40,000 bases of DNA from Veillonella dispar (GTDB taxonomy: Bacteria > Bacillota > Negativicutes > Veillonellales > Veillonellaceae). A program made the translations under genes and the position numbers. The stretch is taken from positions 601,952 to 641,951 of the forward strand of contig NZ_LR134375.1 in NCBI RefSeq assembly GCF_900637515.1, in the 5' to 3' direction. This document shows, piece after piece, positions 5,617 through 31,277 of this stretch. The notes under the pieces were generated by a model. The model was not told the origin of the DNA. It did no database searches and worked only from the letters and a program-made list of their open reading frames with translations. How positions within the stretch are numbered: the first letter of the stretch is position 1; the number at the start of each line of letters is the position of its first letter.

Positions 5617-6114
5617 ATGCAAAAGAAATGTAGACGATGCGGGGACACATTCACAGTAAGAACTCACGAGGACTATTGTCCTGAGTGTGAGAAAGTTATG
5701 ACACCTCCTGGTGCAGGCGTGAGTAAAGAGTTAACCTGTGAGGGATGTGGCACAACCTTCATTCACAAAAAAGAAAAAGCGCAAGGTCGTTGGCCTAAAT
5801 ATTGTCCGGAGTGTCTACCTAAGTATTCGAAGGTACCTAAGAAGAAGGAAGTAGCGGTAGAACCGGTAGCCCAAACTATCGAGGAGCATGAAGTTAAGGC
5901 CATTAAAGAAGATGTTATCAACCACCCTTCACACTACACACGGGGCAAGATTGAGGTTATCGATTTTATCGAGGATCAACAACTTCCGTATCATCTAGGT
6001 AATGTTATCAAGTACATCGCAAGAGCAGGGTATAAGGGTGACAAACTCGAAGACCTAAAAAAAGCGCGGTGGTACTTAGACCGTTACATCAACGAGGTAG
6101 CGCAGCATGAGTGA
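5617..6114 (+). CDS. Zinc-ribbon plus DUF3310-like protein
   Basis: AAGGAG RBS. The N-terminus has CxxC...CxxC pairs (CRRCG, CPEC, CEGCG, CPEC). The C-terminus, HPSHYTRGKIEVIDFIEDQQLPYHLGNVIKYIARAGYKG...DLKKARWYLDRYI, matches my memory of the DUF3310 signature. Confidence 0.65.
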   Translation: MQKKCRRCGDTFTVRTHEDYCPECEKVMTPPGAGVSKELTCEGCGTTFIHKKEKAQGRWPKYCPECLPKYSKVPKKKEVAVEPVAQTIEEHEVKAIKEDVINHPSHYTRGKIEVIDFIEDQQLPYHLGNVIKYIARAGYKGDKLEDLKKARWYLDRYINEVAQHE

Positions 6115-6535
6115 TTATAAAGAAAAGGCGACTGCGTATCTGCAAGATATCAAGCTGATTGCGATTCGTATTCAATCACTACGGCAAGATATTCGCAAAT
6201 TGCAGTATGATATCATCACCTTATCGGCGATTGATTATTCCAAAGACAGAGTATCAGGGGGCGGTACTCCAGTAGGTCTTGAAGGGGACGTAGCAAGACT
6301 TGTTGATACAGTAGATGCCAAAAAACGGGAGATAGCAAAGCTTATTGCTAAAAGGGAAGAAGCAAGGGCTTTAATTGAAAAGATAGAATGTATACCAGGG
6401 CGTATTATATTAGCGCAAGAGTACATTAACGGGGCATTCCCTAAGAAGGTGCAAGCGATGATATATTACGAAAAAAGCAGTTACTTCAATTTAAAAAATA
6501 AAGCGTTGAACGAATTAGGGGAACTCCTTTCATAG
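6107..6535 (+). CDS. Putative late-gene transcriptional regulator (ArpU/RinA/DUF1492-like, sigma region-4-like C-terminus)
   Basis: A 142-aa protein immediately upstream of the packaging genes, which is the usual position of late activators in Firmicute phages. Family assignment is by size, position and loose sequence feel only. Confidence 0.4.
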   Translation: MSDYKEKATAYLQDIKLIAIRIQSLRQDIRKLQYDIITLSAIDYSKDRVSGGGTPVGLEGDVARLVDTVDAKKREIAKLIAKREEARALIEKIECIPGRIILAQEYINGAFPKKVQAMIYYEKSSYFNLKNKALNELGELLS

Positions 6536-6536
6536 T

Positions 6537-6570
6537 GGAGTACTTTGGAGTGTTTTGGAGTGTTTTGGAC
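6537..6570 (+). repeat. 3.4 tandem copies of a 10-bp unit GGAGT(A/G)(C/T)TTT
   Basis: GGAGTACTTT GGAGTGTTTT GGAGTGTTTT GGAC begins 2 nt after the regulator stop codon. The 10-bp (helical) phasing sits just upstream of a TATAAT box. Confidence 0.8.
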
Positions 6571-6599
6571 TTAAATGAACCGACTTGACAAGGTATAAT
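6565..6599 (+). promoter_or_regulatory. Candidate late promoter (perfect -10 TATAAT at 6594-6599, poor -35)
   Basis: TATAAT at 6594-6599. The hexamer at 17-bp spacing is TTAAAT (6571-6576). The TTGACA at 6585-6590 is too close to serve as a -35. The phased repeats lie immediately upstream. Confidence 0.35.
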
Positions 6600-6660
6600 G
6601 TAGTTGTGAAAGGTGTCATTAGTCATCTAACACAAATCCTCTCTTATACACAACTCGGCA

Positions 6661-6690
6661 AAAAGCACGGTGATGACGACCGTGCTTTTT
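6661..6690 (+). terminator. Intrinsic terminator (usable in both directions)
   Basis: Stem AAAAGCACGG (6661-6670) pairs with CCGTGCTTTT (6680-6689) around a 9-nt loop. There is an A-run before it and a T-run after it. Confidence 0.75.
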
Positions 6691-21908: not shown

Positions 21909-22339
21909 TGGCAGATAATTTACTATTACCAAAACAAAATAACGATGCCCTTATTCCTGATACAGTGAATTACATTGAACCGTCGCATACGTATGATGTT
22001 GATTTTAGAACGGACAGCCAAATTAGGGGCTATGCAGATAAGTTGCGAGCTATGGAGCAAGCAATTTATAAAATCATCAATACGGAGCGATACCAATATA
22101 TCATTTACAGTTGGAATTACGGCATCGAACTACAAGACTTATTCGGACAGCCAATTCCGTATGTGTACGCTGAGTTACAGCGACGCATAGAAGAGGCTTT
22201 ACTGAATGACGACAGAATAACTAAAGTATATAACTTTGATTTTAGCCACGAAGGTGGCGACGTCATGGTTGAGTTTGATGTAGATACCATCTATGGTACG
22301 CTACAAAAAATCAAGAAAGGGGTGAAAGGTATTGTATGA
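21908..22339 (+). CDS. XkdS-like / gpW-like baseplate wedge protein
   Basis: Size and PBSX synteny, directly upstream of the baseplate J gene. Confidence 0.5.
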   Translation: MADNLLLPKQNNDALIPDTVNYIEPSHTYDVDFRTDSQIRGYADKLRAMEQAIYKIINTERYQYIIYSWNYGIELQDLFGQPIPYVYAELQRRIEEALLNDDRITKVYNFDFSHEGGDVMVEFDVDTIYGTLQKIKKGVKGIV

Positions 22340-23411
22340 GCATATGACGGCCAATCGAATTGAAAAACGAATGCTCGATAGAGTTAAAGATGAATTCGAT
22401 CGGCGCGAAGGTAGTGTTATATACGATGCTACAGCTCCGGCAAGCGTTGAGTTTGCAGAACTATATATCCTAGCCGATGTGATTCTGAAACAAGCGTTTG
22501 CAACGACCGCAGACCGGGAATTCCTAATACTTCGTGCTGCGGAGTTTAATATTTACCCGGAACCTGCAACGCAAGGCGAATTTGAAGCTCAGTTCAATAT
22601 GGAAGTACCGATTGGCTCCAGGTTTAATTACAATGAATACAACTTTGTTGTAACAGAGGTAATCGACGACGCGGAACATAAGTACAAACTTAAATGCGAA
22701 CAGTACGGACGCACTCCTAATGCGACCACAGGTGATATTACGCCAATCCAAGGTATTAATGGCCTTACCTCTGCTAAGATATTGAAGAATATCACGCCTG
22801 GCGAAGATGAAGAAGACACAGAAGTATTCCGAAAACGGTACTTTGATGCTTTGAAATCAAAAGCCTATGGCGGTAATGGTGCGGATTACAAGGAAAAGGT
22901 ATTAGCTATCCCTGGCGTTGGCGGTGTTAAAGTATACCGCTGTTGGAATGGCGGTGGTACCGTTAAGCTAGTTGTATTGAATAGCGACTACAAGCCTGCA
23001 GCAGATGAACTGATTAAGGAAGTAGAGAACGTTATAGACCCAGCGCCAAAAGGCAAAGGGTACGGGCTTGCTCCTATCGGCCACACCGTAACAATCGAAA
23101 AGGCTGACCCGGTAACGATCAACTACCGAATTGAAGTCACCATGATGAGCGGGCACAACGTCAATGAAATCCAAACTCTTGCCGAGAACGCTATCAAGCA
23201 ACGACTACTTCTCCGCGCTAAGGAATGGTGTAATCAAGACGAGAAGGAACATGTTATTCTTCGGACTAGTCTTGTAACGGCTTTAATGGTTGAGCTTCCT
23301 AGTGTTCTTGACGTAGGTAGGATTACTATAAACGGTGCTTCTGTTTCAAAACTCGAATTGAAGGATAATCAAATCCCAGTAGTAGGGACGATTACTTTGG
23401 TGGCAGTATGA
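22332..23411 (+). CDS. Baseplate J-like protein (XkdT-like)
   Basis: 359 aa, called on synteny. The start is TTG 22332 (after GGGGTGA) or ATG 22344. Confidence 0.7.
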   Translation: MYEHMTANRIEKRMLDRVKDEFDRREGSVIYDATAPASVEFAELYILADVILKQAFATTADREFLILRAAEFNIYPEPATQGEFEAQFNMEVPIGSRFNYNEYNFVVTEVIDDAEHKYKLKCEQYGRTPNATTGDITPIQGINGLTSAKILKNITPGEDEEDTEVFRKRYFDALKSKAYGGNGADYKEKVLAIPGVGGVKVYRCWNGGGTVKLVVLNSDYKPAADELIKEVENVIDPAPKGKGYGLAPIGHTVTIEKADPVTINYRIEVTMMSGHNVNEIQTLAENAIKQRLLLRAKEWCNQDEKEHVILRTSLVTALMVELPSVLDVGRITINGASVSKLELKDNQIPVVGTITLVAV

Positions 23412-24040
23412 TTACAGACTTTGGGATTTTTAAACGGGATATTGATATCTCACAATTCGCCGTTCCGTTAACTCGAGATTCTCGGGATATCCAAGAAGTC
23501 TATCGAGTAGAATCTGCAGAACTACAACTGCTATGGGATATCATGCTAGATATCTTTAAAGAAGAATACATCTATACTGCAGCAGATTACGGGCTTGAAG
23601 CATGGGAACAAATATTAGGCATCAATCCTCCGGATTTGACAGACACAGAAGGACGCAGAAGTGAAATACTATCAGTATTAATCGGACAGCGTCCTTTTAC
23701 TATGCCAAAAGTGCAAGAAATGCTTAACTTCAAGTTTGGCAATCATGTAGTAAAGCACTCTGTTGTATCTGATAGATACGAGTACTGGCTAGATGTAGTC
23801 GATGGATTTGAATCACAGCTCAACAATATTGTCGATTATGTGGAGCCGTTAATACCTAAGAACTTAATCATCAAGACAAAAAGTACTACAAACATTAACG
23901 GCGAAATATATGTAGGCGCTATATCTGATGTATACGAGTCCTTCCATGTCGGAGCGGCATTAGATAAGTTTGATTTCAAAGTAGGCTCTGACATTAACAT
24001 AGGCATGAGCTTCGACGTATTAGAAACAATTAAAGTATAA
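23408..24040 (+). CDS. XkdU-like tail protein (DUF2313-like, gpI-like)
   Basis: Follows baseplate J with an overlapping stop. Called on size and synteny. Confidence 0.5.
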   Translation: MITDFGIFKRDIDISQFAVPLTRDSRDIQEVYRVESAELQLLWDIMLDIFKEEYIYTAADYGLEAWEQILGINPPDLTDTEGRRSEILSVLIGQRPFTMPKVQEMLNFKFGNHVVKHSVVSDRYEYWLDVVDGFESQLNNIVDYVEPLIPKNLIIKTKSTTNINGEIYVGAISDVYESFHVGAALDKFDFKVGSDINIGMSFDVLETIKV

Positions 24041-24049
24041 GGAGAACAC

Positions 24050-24955
24050 ATGGCTTCTATTTATCCAAATACACGATTAACCAATTATGGCCGTGAGTTA
24101 ATCGCAAGATCGCAAGCAACCGGCAAGAAGTTGCAATACATTAAGCTAGTTACTGGTGACGGTCAGCTTGATAATCAAAATATCGATACTATGACCTCTG
24201 TACTAGCCCCAAAATTAGAGTGCCCGTTCACTTCGGGCGGTGAATTCGTAGGCGACGGCCAATTTAGAATCGAATTTGCGGTTAGTAACAGCACAGTGAA
24301 TAGCGGGTTCTTCGCTAGAGAGTTAGGCGTATATGCTAACCTTGAGGGTGAATCTGATTCCGCTGCTAAACTAATTGCATATAGCAACGGCGGAAACTAT
24401 GCTTCCTATATTCCGTCTAAGGAAACACCGATTAATTCTAAAGTGTTTTCTTTAGATGTAGTAATCGGTAACTCTACGAATGTAACAGTTAAGAAGATTG
24501 ATGCGGCATACCTCACACGAGGGGCATTAGATTCTCATAACCGTGATACAAGCGCACACTCAAATATCACAGACCAAATTAAGGCGATTCTCGGAAGTGC
24601 GAACTGGAACGACTCCCCGGCCAGTACACTTGTTACAATTAAAAACTTATTAGGACAAGGCGCTATCGTGGCATCTAAGCTCGACGCTAATGCGGGGTTT
24701 GTAAAGTTCGCTAATGGTTTCACTATCCAGTGGGGAATAGGAGGGCAGGATAACGTGACCAAAAGTGAAGTAAGATTCCCAATCAAATTCACAACGCTAT
24801 TTATGGCCAACGCTATTGATGCATACTGGTCAGGTTCTGACACGCCTAGGTATTTCGCTAACTCCGTGTCGGAGAGCAACTCCACTAAAGCCGTATTTTC
24901 GGCAAGCGATAGATACGCTGCTTCTTATTACTGGTTTGCTCTAGGGATTATCTAG
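24050..24955 (+). CDS. Tail fibre protein: tail-collar-type N-terminus plus currently expressed C-terminal tip A
   Basis: AAGGAG RBS. The N-terminus TNYGRELIARSQATGKKLQYIKLVTGDGQ resembles the Mu S / P2 H tail-collar fibre domain. The variable tip starts after IQW (codons 226-228). Confidence 0.8.
   Translation: MASIYPNTRLTNYGRELIARSQATGKKLQYIKLVTGDGQLDNQNIDTMTSVLAPKLECPFTSGGEFVGDGQFRIEFAVSNSTVNSGFFARELGVYANLEGESDSAAKLIAYSNGGNYASYIPSKETPINSKVFSLDVVIGNSTNVTVKKIDAAYLTRGALDSHNRDTSAHSNITDQIKAILGSANWNDSPASTLVTIKNLLGQGAIVASKLDANAGFVKFANGFTIQWGIGGQDNVTKSEVRFPIKFTTLFMANAIDAYWSGSDTPRYFANSVSESNSTKAVFSASDRYAASYYWFALGII
24727..24734 (+). repeat. Putative recombination core A (CCAGTGGG) inside the fibre gene
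   Basis: Identical 8-mer in the same reading phase (cCAG TGG g = Gln-Trp) as cores B and C. Confidence 0.6.
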
Positions 24956-25185
24956 TTACCTATGATAATGAACATAATCTGATCACCAACGCCTTGCTGT
25001 CCTCTATAGTCACTATCCTTATATGTTAGCTGATTTCTAGAAGTCGATAAAATGATTTCAGAAAATGAATAATCACCGTTATATCTTGCGGTAGAAACGG
25101 CGATAGTCTTGTTACTGAACTCTACCGGGTAGCGCACAGTCCAAGGCTTAGGTTGATTATAGGCGTTAAATAATACCCACTGGAT
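24952..25185 (-). other. Silent tail-fibre C-terminal cassette C (no own start or RBS)
   Basis: The minus-strand frame is open from 25185 to the TAG (complement of 24952-24954). It reads IQWVLFNAYNQPKPWTVRYPVEFSNKTIAVSTARYNGDYSFSEIILSTSRNQLTYKDSDYRGQQGVGDQIMFIIIGN, paralogous in length and pattern to tip A. Confidence 0.7.
25176..25183 (-). repeat. Putative recombination core C (CCAGTGGG on minus strand)
   Basis: The plus strand reads CCCACTGG. The core is in frame with Gln-Trp at the head of cassette C. Confidence 0.6.
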
Positions 25186-25186
25186 A

Positions 25187-25429
25187 TTAATTCTTCCCTA
25201 CGGCCATCCAAACAAAACTACCTGTGTCCGCTCTGTCGGTTAAGAATCGGATGGTGTTTCTATTAGCTTGAGAGAACCCACTGTTCCAAGTAATAAAACA
25301 TTTTGCGCCGGAAGTATCAACACTAACAGAGTCATCGGTGGCTAATGCAATTAGCACAGTGCTGCTAATCGGTAGCGAAACATCTTTATAGTATCTATTA
25401 GAATCAAACCAAGTTATCCCCCACTGGGG
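25187..25429 (-). other. Silent tail-fibre C-terminal cassette B (no own start or RBS)
   Basis: The minus-strand frame runs from 25429 to the TAA (complement of 25187-25189). It reads PQWGITWFDSNRYYKDVSLPISSTVLIALATDDSVSVDTSGAKCFITWNSGFSQANRNTIRFLTDRADTGSFVWMAVGKN, paralogous to tips A and C. Confidence 0.7.
25420..25427 (-). repeat. Putative recombination core B (CCAGTGGG on minus strand)
   Basis: The plus strand reads CCCACTGG. It lies 4 nt from the recombinase stop codon and is in frame with Gln-Trp at the head of cassette B. Confidence 0.6.
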
Positions 25430-25431
25430 AG

Positions 25432-26277
25432 TTACTTTAATAATTCTATGGACTTGCGTAGCTCACGAATGGTCTTATGTGTGTATACCCTAGTAGTGAT
25501 ATCACCTTGTTTATGGCCTAGCAAGGAGCGTAATGCGTTAGGTGGCGCTACCGCATCAAGTAGACTTGCAAATGTGTGCCGGGTATCGTGGATAGTATGC
25601 TTGCAGTTAAGCTGTTTCATAATATTATGGAAATGCTTACGGAACGTTGTATAGCTGATAGTGAATAGGTAATCGCTAGTATGTAGTTGCTCTATTATAG
25701 GCATGATGCGGTGATGAATGGGAATGATACGACCTTCACCGGCTTTAGTTTTGGCGTGTCTTACGATAAGGTATGATGATCGTCTATTGATATCTTGCCT
25801 ACGTAAGTTAAGGAGCTCACCTATGCGTAGTCCGGTGTAGAGCAGTATTAAAATCATGCGGGAATAAGATGTATCTATTGCCCATAATTTGTTGATTTGT
25901 TGGCGAGTGAATACTCTTCTCTTAATCGTCGGTCTATTGGGCCCTAGATTTAGGTGCAGGGCGTAATTAGTGACAGAGTAATCTCTAATGATTGCGTAAT
26001 TGAATAATTGATTAAGTAATGTACGGACTTTCTTACAAGATGAGTAGGAAAGTCCTTTTACGCGCATGGAATCAATCACATTTTGAAGGTGCTGAAAATG
26101 AATATCCGTGATAGACATATCCGCTATGTTGGATATGTGTTTAAAAGCAATGTGATAAGACTTAACAGCGCTATTAGAAATAGTCTGAGAGTGAATAGGC
26201 AACCACTCGTTAAATAGTTGCCTTAATGTAATGGTATTGCGTTGTCTACGTTTTAGTATAACTGCGTAACGGCGCAT
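25432..26277 (-). CDS. Tyrosine site-specific recombinase (candidate fibre-tip invertase)
   Basis: GGAGGTG RBS. Catalytic residues occur in order: R (TGLRIGEL), K (HAKTKAGEG), HxxR (HDTRHTFAS), H (LLGHK), Y (TRVYTH). It is the only clearly coding minus-strand gene in the phage part of the window. Confidence 0.85.
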   Translation of the reverse strand: MRRYAVILKRRQRNTITLRQLFNEWLPIHSQTISNSAVKSYHIAFKHISNIADMSITDIHFQHLQNVIDSMRVKGLSYSSCKKVRTLLNQLFNYAIIRDYSVTNYALHLNLGPNRPTIKRRVFTRQQINKLWAIDTSYSRMILILLYTGLRIGELLNLRRQDINRRSSYLIVRHAKTKAGEGRIIPIHHRIMPIIEQLHTSDYLFTISYTTFRKHFHNIMKQLNCKHTIHDTRHTFASLLDAVAPPNALRSLLGHKQGDITTRVYTHKTIRELRKSIELLK

Positions 26278-26303: not shown

Positions 26304-26696
26304 ATGAATCAATATGTATTTGTATTGAACGAAATGGGCGAACGAATTACGTCCTATGTTGATAATACAGTAACGCAAGAGCAGTTGTTAGCAACTGCAA
26401 AACAAGAATGGCCAGATGCAAAGGATTATATTTACTCTACAGACGGCGATAGTATGCTAGATGAATTTATGAAAGGTAAATTCTATGTAAACGGCAAGTT
26501 TGTCGAACCTGCTCCGTATGTTCCTACCAAGGAGGATAAGATTAATGCGATTAAATCTGAATACGAGCCGCGCTTCAAATCCTTAGAAGAGGCTCAGCGC
26601 AGATTGTTATTAATGGGAAAACCTACTGGGGCCATTAGTGCACAATATATCAAATTAAATACCGAAATGGTAACACGTATTAAGGAGGTACAATAA
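26304..26696 (+). CDS. Hypothetical protein (possible fibre assembly/chaperone role by position)
   Basis: 130-aa ORF with an AAAGGA RBS. No recognisable motif. The functional guess rests on position only. Confidence 0.35.
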   Translation: MNQYVFVLNEMGERITSYVDNTVTQEQLLATAKQEWPDAKDYIYSTDGDSMLDEFMKGKFYVNGKFVEPAPYVPTKEDKINAIKSEYEPRFKSLEEAQRRLLLMGKPTGAISAQYIKLNTEMVTRIKEVQ

Positions 26697-26862: not shown

Positions 26863-27172
26863 TGCAATTAAAGGGGAAGTGATTTCTCTTAGCATTGGTT
26901 ATAACAATGTTGTTGCAAGTGAAAGTTTGTTCGCCTGTGTTCGTAAATATTCTCCGGACGAAGAATATAAAGCTAAGTTCGATATTGACGTGTCTACCGA
27001 CGAGCTAGAAAACGATGAAGCATCTAAAATCACTCTTTCGTTGGATACAAATGCCCTAGCAGTCGGTAAATACCAATGGGACTTATTTATTTGGAATGGC
27101 GACCACCCTATCAAATGTCTAGTTAAAGGACAAATTACTATAGTCGAAGGCGTTAGCAATAGGGGGAAATGA
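26834..27172 (+). CDS. Hypothetical protein (small beta-rich, fibre-associated by position)
   Basis: 112-aa ORF. Its stop overlaps the start of the collagen-like gene. Confidence 0.4.
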
Positions 27173-28488
27173 TGGACGAACTACACATTCACGAAAATAA
27201 CGAAACGATCAAAGTTAAAGACAATACTCAAATCGTTAAACTGCAAGGACCGAAAGGAGACCCTGGGCCACAGGGCCCTCCTGGTCCTCCAGGTCCACAG
27301 GGTGAACCTGGTCGAAATGGTATTGACGGAATAAACGGAGAACAAGGGATACAGGGCATTCAAGGCCCGCCTGGTATTCAAGGACCTCCTGGTAAAGATG
27401 GTCTTAAAGGTGAACCCGGAACTCCTGGACAACGTGGAGCGGATGGCGAACGAGGGCCACAGGGGCCACCTGGACCGAAAGGCGAACCGTTTAAGTTCTC
27501 TGACTTCACACAGGAGCAACTTAATGCACTTAAAGGACCGAAAGGTGATAAGGGCGAACAAGGACCTCCCGGTCCTCCTGGTACTGGTGGCACAGGTGGA
27601 GCAGACTTGTCGGATTATACTAAGAAAGCTGACGCCGAAAATCTTTATCTTAAGAAAGTAGACCTAAGAGCTTATCTTACTATGCTCGGTGACCCTAAAT
27701 ATGCACTTAAAACAGAGTTAAATAATTATTTATCTAACACAGATGCGGCTAATAATTATGCTCAAAAAGGCTGGGCAACTCAAACGTTTGCATATAAAGG
27801 TGATTTAGGTGTCTATATTAAGAAATCCGAAATCGGTCAATATGCATTAACACCTGGTGATGCTTCTAGTCGTTACGTCAATAAATTAGAGGGGCAGTCC
27901 TTCGCTCAAAAATCTGAATTAAGTGATTATGTTAAGAAAACTGAAATTAATCAGTATACATCAAGTACACAAGGGCCGCCAGGGCCTAAAGGAGAGCCGT
28001 TCAAATATTCTGACTTCACGCAAGACCAACTTAATGCACTTAAAGGGCCAAAGGGTGATAAAGGCGAGCCGTTCAAGTATTCTGATTTTACGGCGGAACA
28101 ATTACTAGCATTAAGAGGGCCTAAAGGAGCCCCTGGGAGCGGTGGGGGACAAGTAACTTCACAACCAGTCGAAATATATGAAGTTGTTTGGGGTAATGCT
28201 ATAGCCAGTAACCCTGGTGCTGATAGAGGTTACTTAGCGTTTGACCCCTTAACTGGTTGGGGATACTTACATTTTGATTTTAAATTGAAAACCCCTTCTG
28301 GTAATGGCAATATGGTAGCATCGCTTCCACCAAATGCGCCAGTTGCAGTAAGGCTAATTGAAAGAAGCGTTGATGCAAGTAACAATAGCATTTATGTTGA
28401 ACGAAATAGCCGTATAATTAAGGGTTGGGGTGTACCGGCGAACATGCGGTATATTATTGATATTATTGGTTATTGGAGAAAGGTGTAA
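27169..28488 (+). CDS. Collagen-like repeat tail fibre / receptor-binding protein
   Basis: 27 uninterrupted Gly-X-Y triplets (about 27247-27489). Three copies of the EPFK(F/Y)SDFT..QL.AL(K/R)GPKG module. Fibre-type D/E-L-S-x-Y-x-K-K repeats. A ~110-aa non-repetitive C-terminal domain. Confidence 0.75.
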
Positions 28489-30170: not shown

Positions 30171-30204
30171 GCCCCAGGTAAATAGTACCTGGGGCTTTTT
30201 TTTT
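30171..30204 (+). terminator. Intrinsic terminator ending the late/lysis operon
   Basis: GCCCCAGGT aaatagt ACCTGGGGC followed by T9. Confidence 0.8.
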
Positions 30205-30323
30205 ATTTGACATCATTTTGACATCATTTTATTAAAAAATATATAGAAATATAGTTAAATGTGATACTATGAAATGCAGTAAAATACTGTGTTTATAGAA
30301 TTTGTCATTACCTATATAATTAA

Positions 30324-30368
30324 CTCTTAATCAGGGTGTCCAGGGTTCGAACCCCTGGTGGTCCACCA
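30324..30368 (+). tRNA. tRNA 3'-half remnant (anticodon loop CTCTTAA = CUU Lys-like, T-arm, acceptor, CCA); not an intact gene; probable attR
   Basis: Anticodon loop CTCTTAA, stem half TCAGG, variable GTGTC, T-arm CAGGG TTCGAAC CCCTG, acceptor 3' strand GTGGTCC, then A and CCA. No matching 5' acceptor strand (GGACCAC), D-arm or anticodon-stem partner lies upstream. Confidence 0.6.
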
Positions 30369-30373
30369 AAATA

Positions 30374-30399
30374 ACCCGCACAGTAGTGCGGGTTTTCTT
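30374..30399 (+). terminator. Intrinsic terminator after the tRNA remnant
   Basis: ACCCGCA cagtag TGCGGGT followed by TTTTCTT. Confidence 0.6.
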
Positions 30400-30414
30400 A
30401 TTATTGTCTTTAGA

Positions 30415-31155
30415 CTGGTTCGCGACGTAGTCGCGAATCATAAAACCACCCGCTATGCGGGTGCGGCAACGAAAGTTATACAAAAAAATCACCTTGCTTA
30501 AGTATAATGTAGGTGTTCAAGCCGCATTATATACAAAAGAAAGGTGATTTTATATGGCAACAAAGACACAGAGCCTTGCGCACACAAAATGGTTATGCAA
30601 ATACCACATAGTATTTACACCTAAGTATAGACGTAAAGTTATATATAATCAATACAGAAATAGTTTACGTGAAATATTGAGACGTTTATGTGAATATAAG
30701 GGCGTCAAGATTATAGAGGGGGAGCTTATGGCTGATCATGTGCATATGCTAGTATTAATCCCGCCTAAAATATCAGTATCATCTTTTATGGGATACTTAA
30801 AAGGGAAAAGTGCACTAATGATGTTCGATAAACACGCAAACTTAAAGTATAAATTTGGAAATAGACACTTTTGGTCCGAGGGTTATTATGTTAGTACAGT
30901 AGGTTTAAATGAGGCTACAGTAAAGAAATATATACGTGAGCAAGAGTTACATGACCAAATGAAAGATAAACTTAGTGTAAAAGAATATGAGGACCCTTTT
31001 AAGGGTAGCAAGTAATACACATCCCCTTTAAGGGGAACGTTACGAGTCAATGGCTATGCGGCTTGAACGTAGTGAAAGCCAGCGCCTTTAGACGCTGGCC
31101 TAGTACTACGGGCTTATAGCCCGTGAGCAAACCACCCGTTTTACGGGTGGTTCTG
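30415..31155 (+). mobile_element. IS200/IS605-family insertion sequence (tnpA only); ends approximate
   Basis: A Y1 transposase gene flanked by subterminal hairpins at 30419-30437 and 30447-30463 (left) and 31078-31099, 31108-31124 and 31130-31152 (right). The CCACCCG...CGGGTGG hairpins at the two ends are similar. Confidence 0.6.
30554..31015 (+). CDS. tnpA: IS200/IS605 family Y1 (HUH) transposase TnpA
   Basis: 153 aa. LAHTKWLCKYHIVFTPKYRRK, HUH motif HVHMLV, and the catalytic-Tyr region SEGYYVSTVG. Confidence 0.9.
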   Translation: MATKTQSLAHTKWLCKYHIVFTPKYRRKVIYNQYRNSLREILRRLCEYKGVKIIEGELMADHVHMLVLIPPKISVSSFMGYLKGKSALMMFDKHANLKYKFGNRHFWSEGYYVSTVGLNEATVKKYIREQELHDQMKDKLSVKEYEDPFKGSK

Positions 31156-31277
31156 ATTATCTATTTGTAATCTATTTGTATATTGTAATGAAATTAAATA
31201 ATGTATATATTATAGACAATAAAGATGTAATAGCTTATGATTGCTATATAATAATTTTTCTCATTAGGAGGTACCCA

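Follow-up and report, generated by a model that had tools for sequence, protein, structure and literature searches.

A probable tail-fibre shufflon with a very short crossover site in a Veillonella prophage

Why does a phage keep, beside a tail-fibre gene, two silent fibre tips that open with exactly the same eight base pairs as the expressed one? The question is raised by a prophage with a Mu-like baseplate in a 40-kb stretch of the Veillonella dispar chromosome (contig NZ_LR134375.1, positions 601,952 to 641,951; the whole stretch is called the window here, and positions are counted from its first letter). A preliminary description of the window had proposed that the repeated 8-mer, CCAGTGGG, marks where an inversion system crosses over to join alternative tips to a constant fibre, and the reassortment of flanking sequences at this core among related loci upholds that proposal. 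Our analysis indicates that the locus is very probably a phage-encoded multiple-inversion switch, or shufflon, which exchanges tail-fibre tips at CCAGTGGG and would be served by a tyrosine recombinase encoded directly beside the array.

Cores and alternative tips in the window

The array and its recombinase consist of the following features.

24050-24955, + strand: tail-fibre gene, an open reading frame (PHROG tail fibre, 3.1e-35)
24050-24726, + strand: constant part of the fibre, residues 1-226, ending GFVKFANGFTI, the start of the Gp53-like_C tip domain
24727-24734, + strand: core A, CCAGTGGG, the expression site, on the codons of Gln227-Trp228; extended conserved site 24724-24736
24735-24955, + strand: tip A, currently expressed (..GIGGQDNV..ALGII)
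24952-25175, - strand: tip C, silent (QW/VLFNAYNQ..IIIGN-stop), tail-to-tail with tip A
25176-25183, - strand: core C, an exact copy of CCAGTGGG
25184-25189, - strand: left half of site C, mobile and non-coding, reading TAA-TAT and holding the stop codon of tip B
25187-25419, - strand: tip B, silent (QW/GITWFDSN..AVGKN-stop)
25420-25427, - strand: core B, the recombinase-proximal site, within a near-palindrome at 25417-25429
25432-26277, - strand: tyrosine recombinase of 281 residues, putative invertase

An exhaustive count finds CCAGTGGG at these three places and nowhere else in the 40 kb, as had been judged by eye. Dinucleotide-preserving shuffles put the chance expectation at 0.36 copies rather than the 1.2 first estimated, and three copies were reached in 1 of 100 shuffles, which leaves standing the claim that their number is unlikely to be accidental. 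The flanked sites read ctatCCAGTGGGgaata, atatCCAGTGGGtatta and ctccCCAGTGGGggata, in agreement with the first reading. Their orientation is +, - and -, which opposes cores C and B to core A, and each lies in phase on Gln-Trp codons at the boundary between constant and variable sequence. All three share the frame xxC CAG TGG Gxx, which the fibre reads as Ile226-Gln227-Trp228-Gly229, and on the minus strand the core opens two stop-free frames, 24952-25188 (..NIQWVLFN..IIIGN-stop) and 25187-25432 (..PQWGITWF..AVGKN-stop).

The packing of the cassettes is as exact as had been described. The stop codons of tip A (TAG, 24953-24955) and tip C (complement of 24952-24954) overlap in CTAG, the stop of tip B (25187-25189) is 1 nt short of the Ile codon preceding core C, and core B, in the sequence ccccactgggg (25419-25429), is separated from the recombinase stop (25432-34) by 4 nt. 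Tight packing of tips is a feature of the whole family of related loci, beyond this window. At site B the near-palindrome TCCCCCACTGGGGA is followed by a T-rich stretch (25417-25440, +), which gives a terminator-like flag on the late-gene strand. We discarded a terminator at this hairpin as a candidate, since such flags number 3 against 2.1 in shuffles and are thus not commoner than chance.

The site lies inside a protein domain. Pfam profiles match the fibre over residues 219-299 (PF21882) and, weakly, at its N-terminus (PF12571), and the fixed 5' part including the core comprises 228 codons that end in the first strand (..GFTIQW) of the Gp53-like tip domain. When fused to the constant part, the tips, which are 73-80 codons long, span the whole 84-position Gp53-like_C profile with 40.1 bits for tip A, 31.1 for tip C and 20.4 for tip B, the last of which falls below the cut-off of 24.9. 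The constant part contributes approximately the first 9 residues of the domain, and in the profile alignment the crossover falls at its most conserved motif. Frame and fold are thereby assured for any tip, even though pairwise tip identity is just 29-36% with the shared constant stretch counted in.

Reassortment and inversion among related loci

The locus was compared with 88 Veillonella phage and prophage contigs totalling 617,677 nt, made up of 80 viral-contig loci (86-96% identical in recombinase protein) and 8 genome contigs; individual loci are given by L numbers. Scattered further cores, which the preliminary description had named as telling against a dedicated site, are absent from these contigs: each of the 237 exact cores is confined to the interval from the recombinase stop to the end of the fibre constant region, with none in the other 559,813 nt. 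Because the related loci are near-copies of each other, these core-free flanks are no evidence of avoidance. Tips conserved without the core, likewise named in advance, are nearly absent as well, the core being present at 237 of 240 homologous sites. The three changed cores read CCAGTAGG, CCAGTGGA and CCAATGGG (L024 4851, L028 5095, L043 2182), and the change in CCAATGGG is synonymous and concerns the central base. These single-base variants may be naturally locked sites.

When segments of the window were aligned to the relatives with blastn, the same tips were found in many orders and on both strands. The 231 sites with complete flanks fall into 8 left and 11 right half-site families, which reassort freely. 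The left half that ends the constant region (..GGTTTCACTAT) is joined to 6 tip families and the recombinase-proximal left half (..AAGTAACTCC, the 3' end of the recombinase gene) to 10, while the non-coding ..TTAATAT/..TTAATAC family of left halves reappears in relatives joined to other tips. The bases at -2/-1 never part from the left family, nor those at +1/+2 from the right family, which places both strand exchanges inside the 8 bp.

Rearrangement is also seen between very closely related genomes. In a set of nine contigs with recombinase-gene identity of 99.5% or more, and identity of 99.1% or more in tips A, B and D, the cassettes stand in 6 arrangements, and all 4 tips are found at the expression site among them. 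Tip A occurs in both orientations among the relatives, tip C is expressed in L031, L052, L067, L069 and L073, and tip B in L075 and L077. Comparison of the assembled loci thus shows the sites, their frames, the reassortment of flanks and inversions among near-identical genomes. Inversion between opposed cores would give the window 4 states, with tip A expressed in 1, tip C in 1 and tip B in 2. Relatives carry 2-4 sites per array, and for those with four sites 6 of the 12 computed states were seen. Further, 24 of the 88 contigs end within the array, 9 of them no more than 13 nt after a core, as is explained by an assembler that meets several arrangements in one sample.

In the mechanism we favour, the recombinase would pair the fixed core of the fibre gene with an opposed core and exchange strands inside the core, most likely over a 7-bp overlap, CCAGTGG. 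The DNA between the paired cores would invert and a different tip would join the fibre in frame. Tips A and C would move as one tail-to-tail block, tip B would take its own non-coding left half-site along, and any of the three window tips could reach expression.

Direct repeats pose a problem for such an array. Since core B repeats core C in the same orientation at a distance of 244 bp, tip B would be lost to an enzyme without bias, yet arrays persist despite their direct-repeat cores. The three-cassette loci L069, L052 and L075 equal the four-cassette loci L067, L073 and L077 minus an exact 235-bp core-to-core unit, and between L069 and L067 the bases on either side are identical at 607 of 608 and 873 of 900 positions. 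Loss of this unit is what recombination between direct cores would be expected to produce, and deletion or its reverse appears to occur on some time scale. The strictly inversional behaviour that had been suggested for the system is not supported, as L069 and L052 look like products of exact core-to-core deletion.

Two peculiarities of the deposited arrays were noted. In some silent proximal cassettes the G-run at the 3' edge of the core differs by one base (CCAGTGGGacgcg versus CCAGTGGGgacgcg, reading ggcttaac versus gcttaac; L049 2324, L071 4857, L030 1052). Such a change would put the tip out of frame at the expression site and could be a sequencing error or real slippage. In addition, a left half-site that recurs on both strands, or a pair of facing recombinase copies, was found in L038 (4001-6886), L002 (5324/5776) and L062 (5330/5776). 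These are most likely fold-back misassemblies at inverted cores, for which reason deposited sequences of the array need to be checked against reads before they are trusted.

The repeat might also be accounted for without any programmed recombination, the 8-mers being kept by the IQWG motif of paralogous tips and the silent copies being decaying duplicates. QWG is in fact a general motif of Gp53-like_C domains, and the solved short tail fibre gp92 has ..LQWGTG.. at this place (a weak match, E 0.064). However, positions that the protein leaves free are fixed against codon bias. The Gln codon at the sites is CAG in 237 of 240 cases, though the phage genes favour CAA (167 versus 86). At the wobble position of the Gly codon (+2), 75 of 80 distinct right halves have A or G, against a usage in which GGT and GGC account for 74% of Gly codons. 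Silent sites have untranslated left halves, yet T at -3 and a pyrimidine at -1 hold throughout. Fixed synonymous and untranslated positions point to a constraint on the DNA, and the protein motif explains the repeat only in part. Cassette order and strand moreover change among near-identical genomes, non-coding left halves reassort and assemblies break at cores, which makes an array without recombination hardly credible.

The recombinase, its site and sister modules

The recombinase matches PF00589 over residues 123-269 with 70.8 bits (cut-off 27.1), and alignment to the XerC-like structure 4a8e places its catalytic residues at R151, K176/178, H230, R233, H255 and Y265. NCBIfam gives Xer and integron matches, all of them below threshold. 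The SAM-like core-binding domain begins at residue 17, which leaves no space for an N-terminal arm-binding domain, and the protein ends 16 residues past the catalytic Tyr265 without a C-terminal extension. Most relatives at 35-49% identity have 335-345 residues, with about 60 more at the N-terminus; this extension has no Pfam match and may be an arm-binding domain. A longer enzyme, P0319, also adjoins a tip array, so the lack of an arm-binding domain is no rule for the clade.

V. parvula, V. dispar and uncultured Veillonella genomes carry homologues of the recombinase, and in human metagenomes 932 protein clusters (90% identity) match it, one of which has 2,207 members; the homologue lists are saturated by sequences more than 90% identical. 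In 50,697 GenBank phage records, blastn of the locus gave no match, and the nearest tblastn relatives of the recombinase are at most 34% identical. Three of these were inspected as possible shufflon enzymes and rejected, being ordinary integrases next to lysis/lysogeny modules.

More distant recombinases, 47-50% identical to the window enzyme or to each other, stand beside arrays of their own.

L093-L136, 44 viral contigs (e.g. L119, 3489-6777): P0123 type, 301-308 residues, 48% identical to the window enzyme; core CCAAGGGGGA
L140, 369-3329: P0124, 271 residues, 47% identical to the window enzyme; core CCAAGGG(GGA); in the same module of baseplate J, gp48 and fibre
L141, 5001-7094: P0319, 336 residues, 49% identical to P0124; core CCAAGGT; the contig ends 5 nt past a core

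In these sister modules the cores stand at the homologous Ile-Gln-Gly position. Taken with the core of the window, they differ mostly in their central bases (CCA-GT-GG, CCA-AG-GG, CCA-AG-GT). Recombinase clade and core change in step, which indicates that enzyme and site differ together. Arrays of the P0123 type share the architecture described above, with a core straight after the stop codon, 2-6 sites per complete array and a constant junction (..FGGLIIQGG..) beyond which the tips vary freely. The second shufflon family (family 2) keeps T at -3 and the right-hand GGA. The context of P0124 was obtained through an exact-protein look-up, and a metagenome scan for P0124 relatives gave nothing close. 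In L141 the first tip core is separated from the recombinase stop by two open reading frames of 123 and 74 residues without a Pfam match (6004-6671, -), which indicates that the proximal site is not always fused to the recombinase stop.

Position and the joint change of enzyme and core suggest that the adjacent 281-residue protein is the catalyst. The inversions could instead be real but made by a host invertase in trans or by RecA-type recombination, with the 281-residue protein an integrase or a relic. Invertases acting in trans do exist (Mpi, cited in PMC6109161), and the two unrelated reading frames in L141 separate a recombinase from its array. On the other hand, 8 bp is far below the length needed for homologous recombination, yet the junctions are exact. 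In both family 1 and family 2, all complete loci have the recombinase stop next to a core, and the core changes with the recombinase clade. The gene lies in the tail module, away from the prophage ends, and no core copy occurs at the prophage-host junction (~30200-31170). A catalyst other than the adjacent recombinase appears quite improbable. The PF00589 protein is the only recombinase found in 21-28 kb, and no serine recombinase gene is present at the array.

The site itself was characterized from distinct half-sites, 48 left and 80 right. T stands at -3 in all 48 left halves and -1 is always a pyrimidine, the left flank being variable otherwise. In the right halves +1 is G in 70 of 80, at +2 63 of the 80 have A and 12 have G, and conservation stops 2-4 bp right of the core. 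The conserved T and A at +4/+5 noted in the window do not extend to the family, where +4 is T in 54 of 80 and +5 is A in 31 of 80. Nor does the statement hold that the site has no dyad partner: T at -3 and the pyrimidine at -1 mirror the right flank and give a 13-bp near-palindrome, TCCCCA-G-TGGGGA, which is palindromic save for the central base and is the commonest recombinase-proximal site. The asymmetry first ascribed to the site is correct insofar as the right flank is better conserved, while a short, weak dyad is present as well. If the core is taken as the 7-bp CCAGTGG, both flanks fit 5'-A-n-T-M-Y beside it, with left arms such as ACTCC, ACTAT and AATAC and, on the other strand, right arms such as ATTCC and AATAC. 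In 82 of the 231 complete sites the recombinase stop codon itself forms the left arm of the proximal site. Tyrosine recombinases have overlaps of 6-8 bp. Together with the dyad and with L140, where 2 of 6 sites retain CCAAGGG alone, this suggests that the overlap is the 7-bp CCAGTGG, cleaved symmetrically about its central G.

The better conservation of the right flank could reflect a one-arm site of the kind described for the plasmid invertase Rci, in which one monomer is specific for the core and right flank, a second is recruited non-specifically on the left and the resulting asymmetry confines the reaction to inversion. The sfx sites provide a precedent (PMC11852207), and in family 2 all 14 tip families share the right-hand GGAA, whereas T at -3 and A at -6 are all that the left arm conserves. 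The invariance of T at -3 in the left arms of both families, where it mirrors A at +2 and gives the dyad, is difficult to reconcile with this model. The window enzyme also lacks the C-terminal domain that the model needs (Rci has 384 residues), and the conserved right arm has 2-4 bp instead of 12. Similarity to Rci of IncI plasmids was not detectable in an indirect comparison, made through a plasmid collection as a whole: tblastn at E<=1e-3 against 72,556 plasmid records, among which the R64 record AP005147 is not included, matched 80 records, none listed as Escherichia or Salmonella. The seeming loss of cassettes between cores in direct orientation likewise argues against a site restricted to inversion. 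We therefore regard the one-arm model as doubtful, though not far-fetched.

A more speculative proposal, which we put forward as a rather long shot, is that enzymes of this clade may need just ~13 bp, namely a 7-bp overlap and 3 arm bases per side. Specificity would be reset by 1-2 central bases (CCAGTGG, CCAAGGG, CCAAGGT), and inversion would be favoured without an arm-binding domain, accessory sites or an Rci-type C-terminal domain. This would to our knowledge be the smallest functional site of any tyrosine recombinase. If true, the clade would offer compact, mutually orthogonal invertase/site pairs, and the directionality of armless invertases would become directly testable.

Several observations weigh against a tyrosine-recombinase inversion switch at these sites. 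The conserved ~13 bp are far shorter than typical tyrosine-recombinase sites, and site B of the window has G at +2 where the consensus is A. Arrays with differing numbers of cassettes and exact junctions from core to core indicate that the reaction is not strictly inversion. Lastly, the evidence for rearrangement is all comparative and comes from metagenome assemblies, some of which (L002, L038, L062) are visibly chimeric.

Known switches and the prophage setting

Literature searches found no paper on a Veillonella phage shufflon. Tyrosine-recombinase phage shufflons are already known from two other gut phage groups. The Rin shufflon of the Bifidobacterium prophages Bb423phi1, Bl30698phi1 and Bl157phi1 recombines at an 11-bp rix site, and Rin was reported to be the first tyrosine invertase encoded by a phage (PMC6109161). 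Like the Veillonella system, it combines a phage-encoded tyrosine recombinase without arm-binding domain with an array whose other end is the constant N-terminus of a receptor-binding protein. A short asymmetric repeat, rare elsewhere, stands before each variable C-terminal segment, genome comparison was the source of the inferred inversions, and the avoidance of direct-site deletion was raised as a problem there too (PMC6109161). The likeness is one of described architecture, and no Bifidobacterium phage record in GenBank matched the window recombinase at E<=1e-10. Rin differs in its actinobacterial host, its siphovirus background and its TP901-1-like receptor-binding protein, whereas here we find a Negativicute, a Mu-like baseplate fibre and Gp53-like_C tips. 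The Rin core, TTCCCTAACCC, is unrelated to CCAGTGGG, and the Veillonella core is read in frame as Gln-Trp within the tip domain.

The second group, BV01-like phages of Phocaeicola vulgatus, carries a tail-fibre shufflon with a 10-bp motif, TGGGAGAACT, and 14-18 bp conserved extensions (PMC13596623). It resembles the present locus in having a multi-cassette array over the distal tail-fibre gene, a flanking recombinase and short directional motifs, and all of its configurations were seen in populations (PMC13596623). Its 3 non-homologous cassettes give 6 variants of unequal length, in contrast to the homologous, equal-size tip domains and the ~13-bp site found here.

The preliminary description had likened the sites to those of the shufflon of plasmid R64, an IncI system and the functional archetype of such switches. 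Its sfx site has 31 bp with a 7-bp core, a 12-bp conserved right arm and 19-23 bp conserved repeats, and Rci carries an extra C-terminal domain (PMC11852207, PMC5430464). The comparison is apt for function, since in both systems a tyrosine recombinase encoded beside the array carries out, or in Veillonella would carry out, multiple inversions, and partly for form, with a constant 5' part, alternative 3' ends, two-headed segments arranged tail-to-tail, a core of about 7 bp and a left flank less conserved than the right. The 2-4 bp arm, the missing C-terminal domain and the absence of a match to Escherichia or Salmonella plasmids speak against membership in that group. The R64 target is moreover a pilus adhesin, PilV.

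Serine invertases achieve the same outcome with a different enzyme family and chemistry. Gin with the G segment of Mu, Cin of P1 and Min of p15B switch the C-terminal host-range part of myovirus tail fibres, Min as a multi-segment shufflon (PMC6109161). In Mu the invertible segment also holds a fibre-assembly gene, whereas here just a tip of 73-80 residues is swapped. Serine invertases depend on an enhancer and Fis. The Veillonella locus is notable for its very short, near-palindromic, in-frame site inside the tip domain, the natural series of enzymes and cores, and its abundance in human samples.

In the human mouth and gut Veillonella belongs to the core flora, and the module is very common in human metagenomes. 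Tip switching would be expected to alter host range, and with a switch among up to six receptor-binding tips the host range of such a phage would be a property of the population, not a fixed trait. The switch would also account for the assembly breaks, and deposited tail-fibre sequences of these phages may be arbitrary or chimeric. Related enzymes with differing short cores form a natural data set on site specificity and inversion bias. Barcoding and pathway shuffling already make use of shufflon invertases (PMC11852207), and tool building of this kind would profit from a very short site.

The array lies between the baseplate genes and the end of the prophage.

22332-23411, upstream of the fibre gene: Baseplate_J, a Mu-type baseplate gene
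23408-24040, upstream of the fibre gene: Mu gp48, a Mu-type baseplate gene
26304-26696, + strand: 130-residue gene (phrog_32639), on the strand opposite to the recombinase gene and beginning 26 nt from its start
27169-28488, + strand: collagen-like fibre protein of 439 residues, a second fibre outside the invertible array
~30200-31170: prophage-host boundary; phage lysis genes stop near 30.1 kb and host genes begin at 31176

The 130-residue gene is kept beside both shufflon families, which suggests that fibre, array and recombinase are exchanged as one cassette among related phages; its product could be a fibre-assembly factor serving all tips. It is followed by the collagen-like fibre gene and an amidase gene, and from ~31 kb by host genes for a Dyp peroxidase, threonine synthase (thrC), an EamA transporter and GlnRS. 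The collagen-like fibre protein contains 3 internal copies of the unit GPKGEPFK(F/Y)SDFT..QL.AL(K/R)GPKG.

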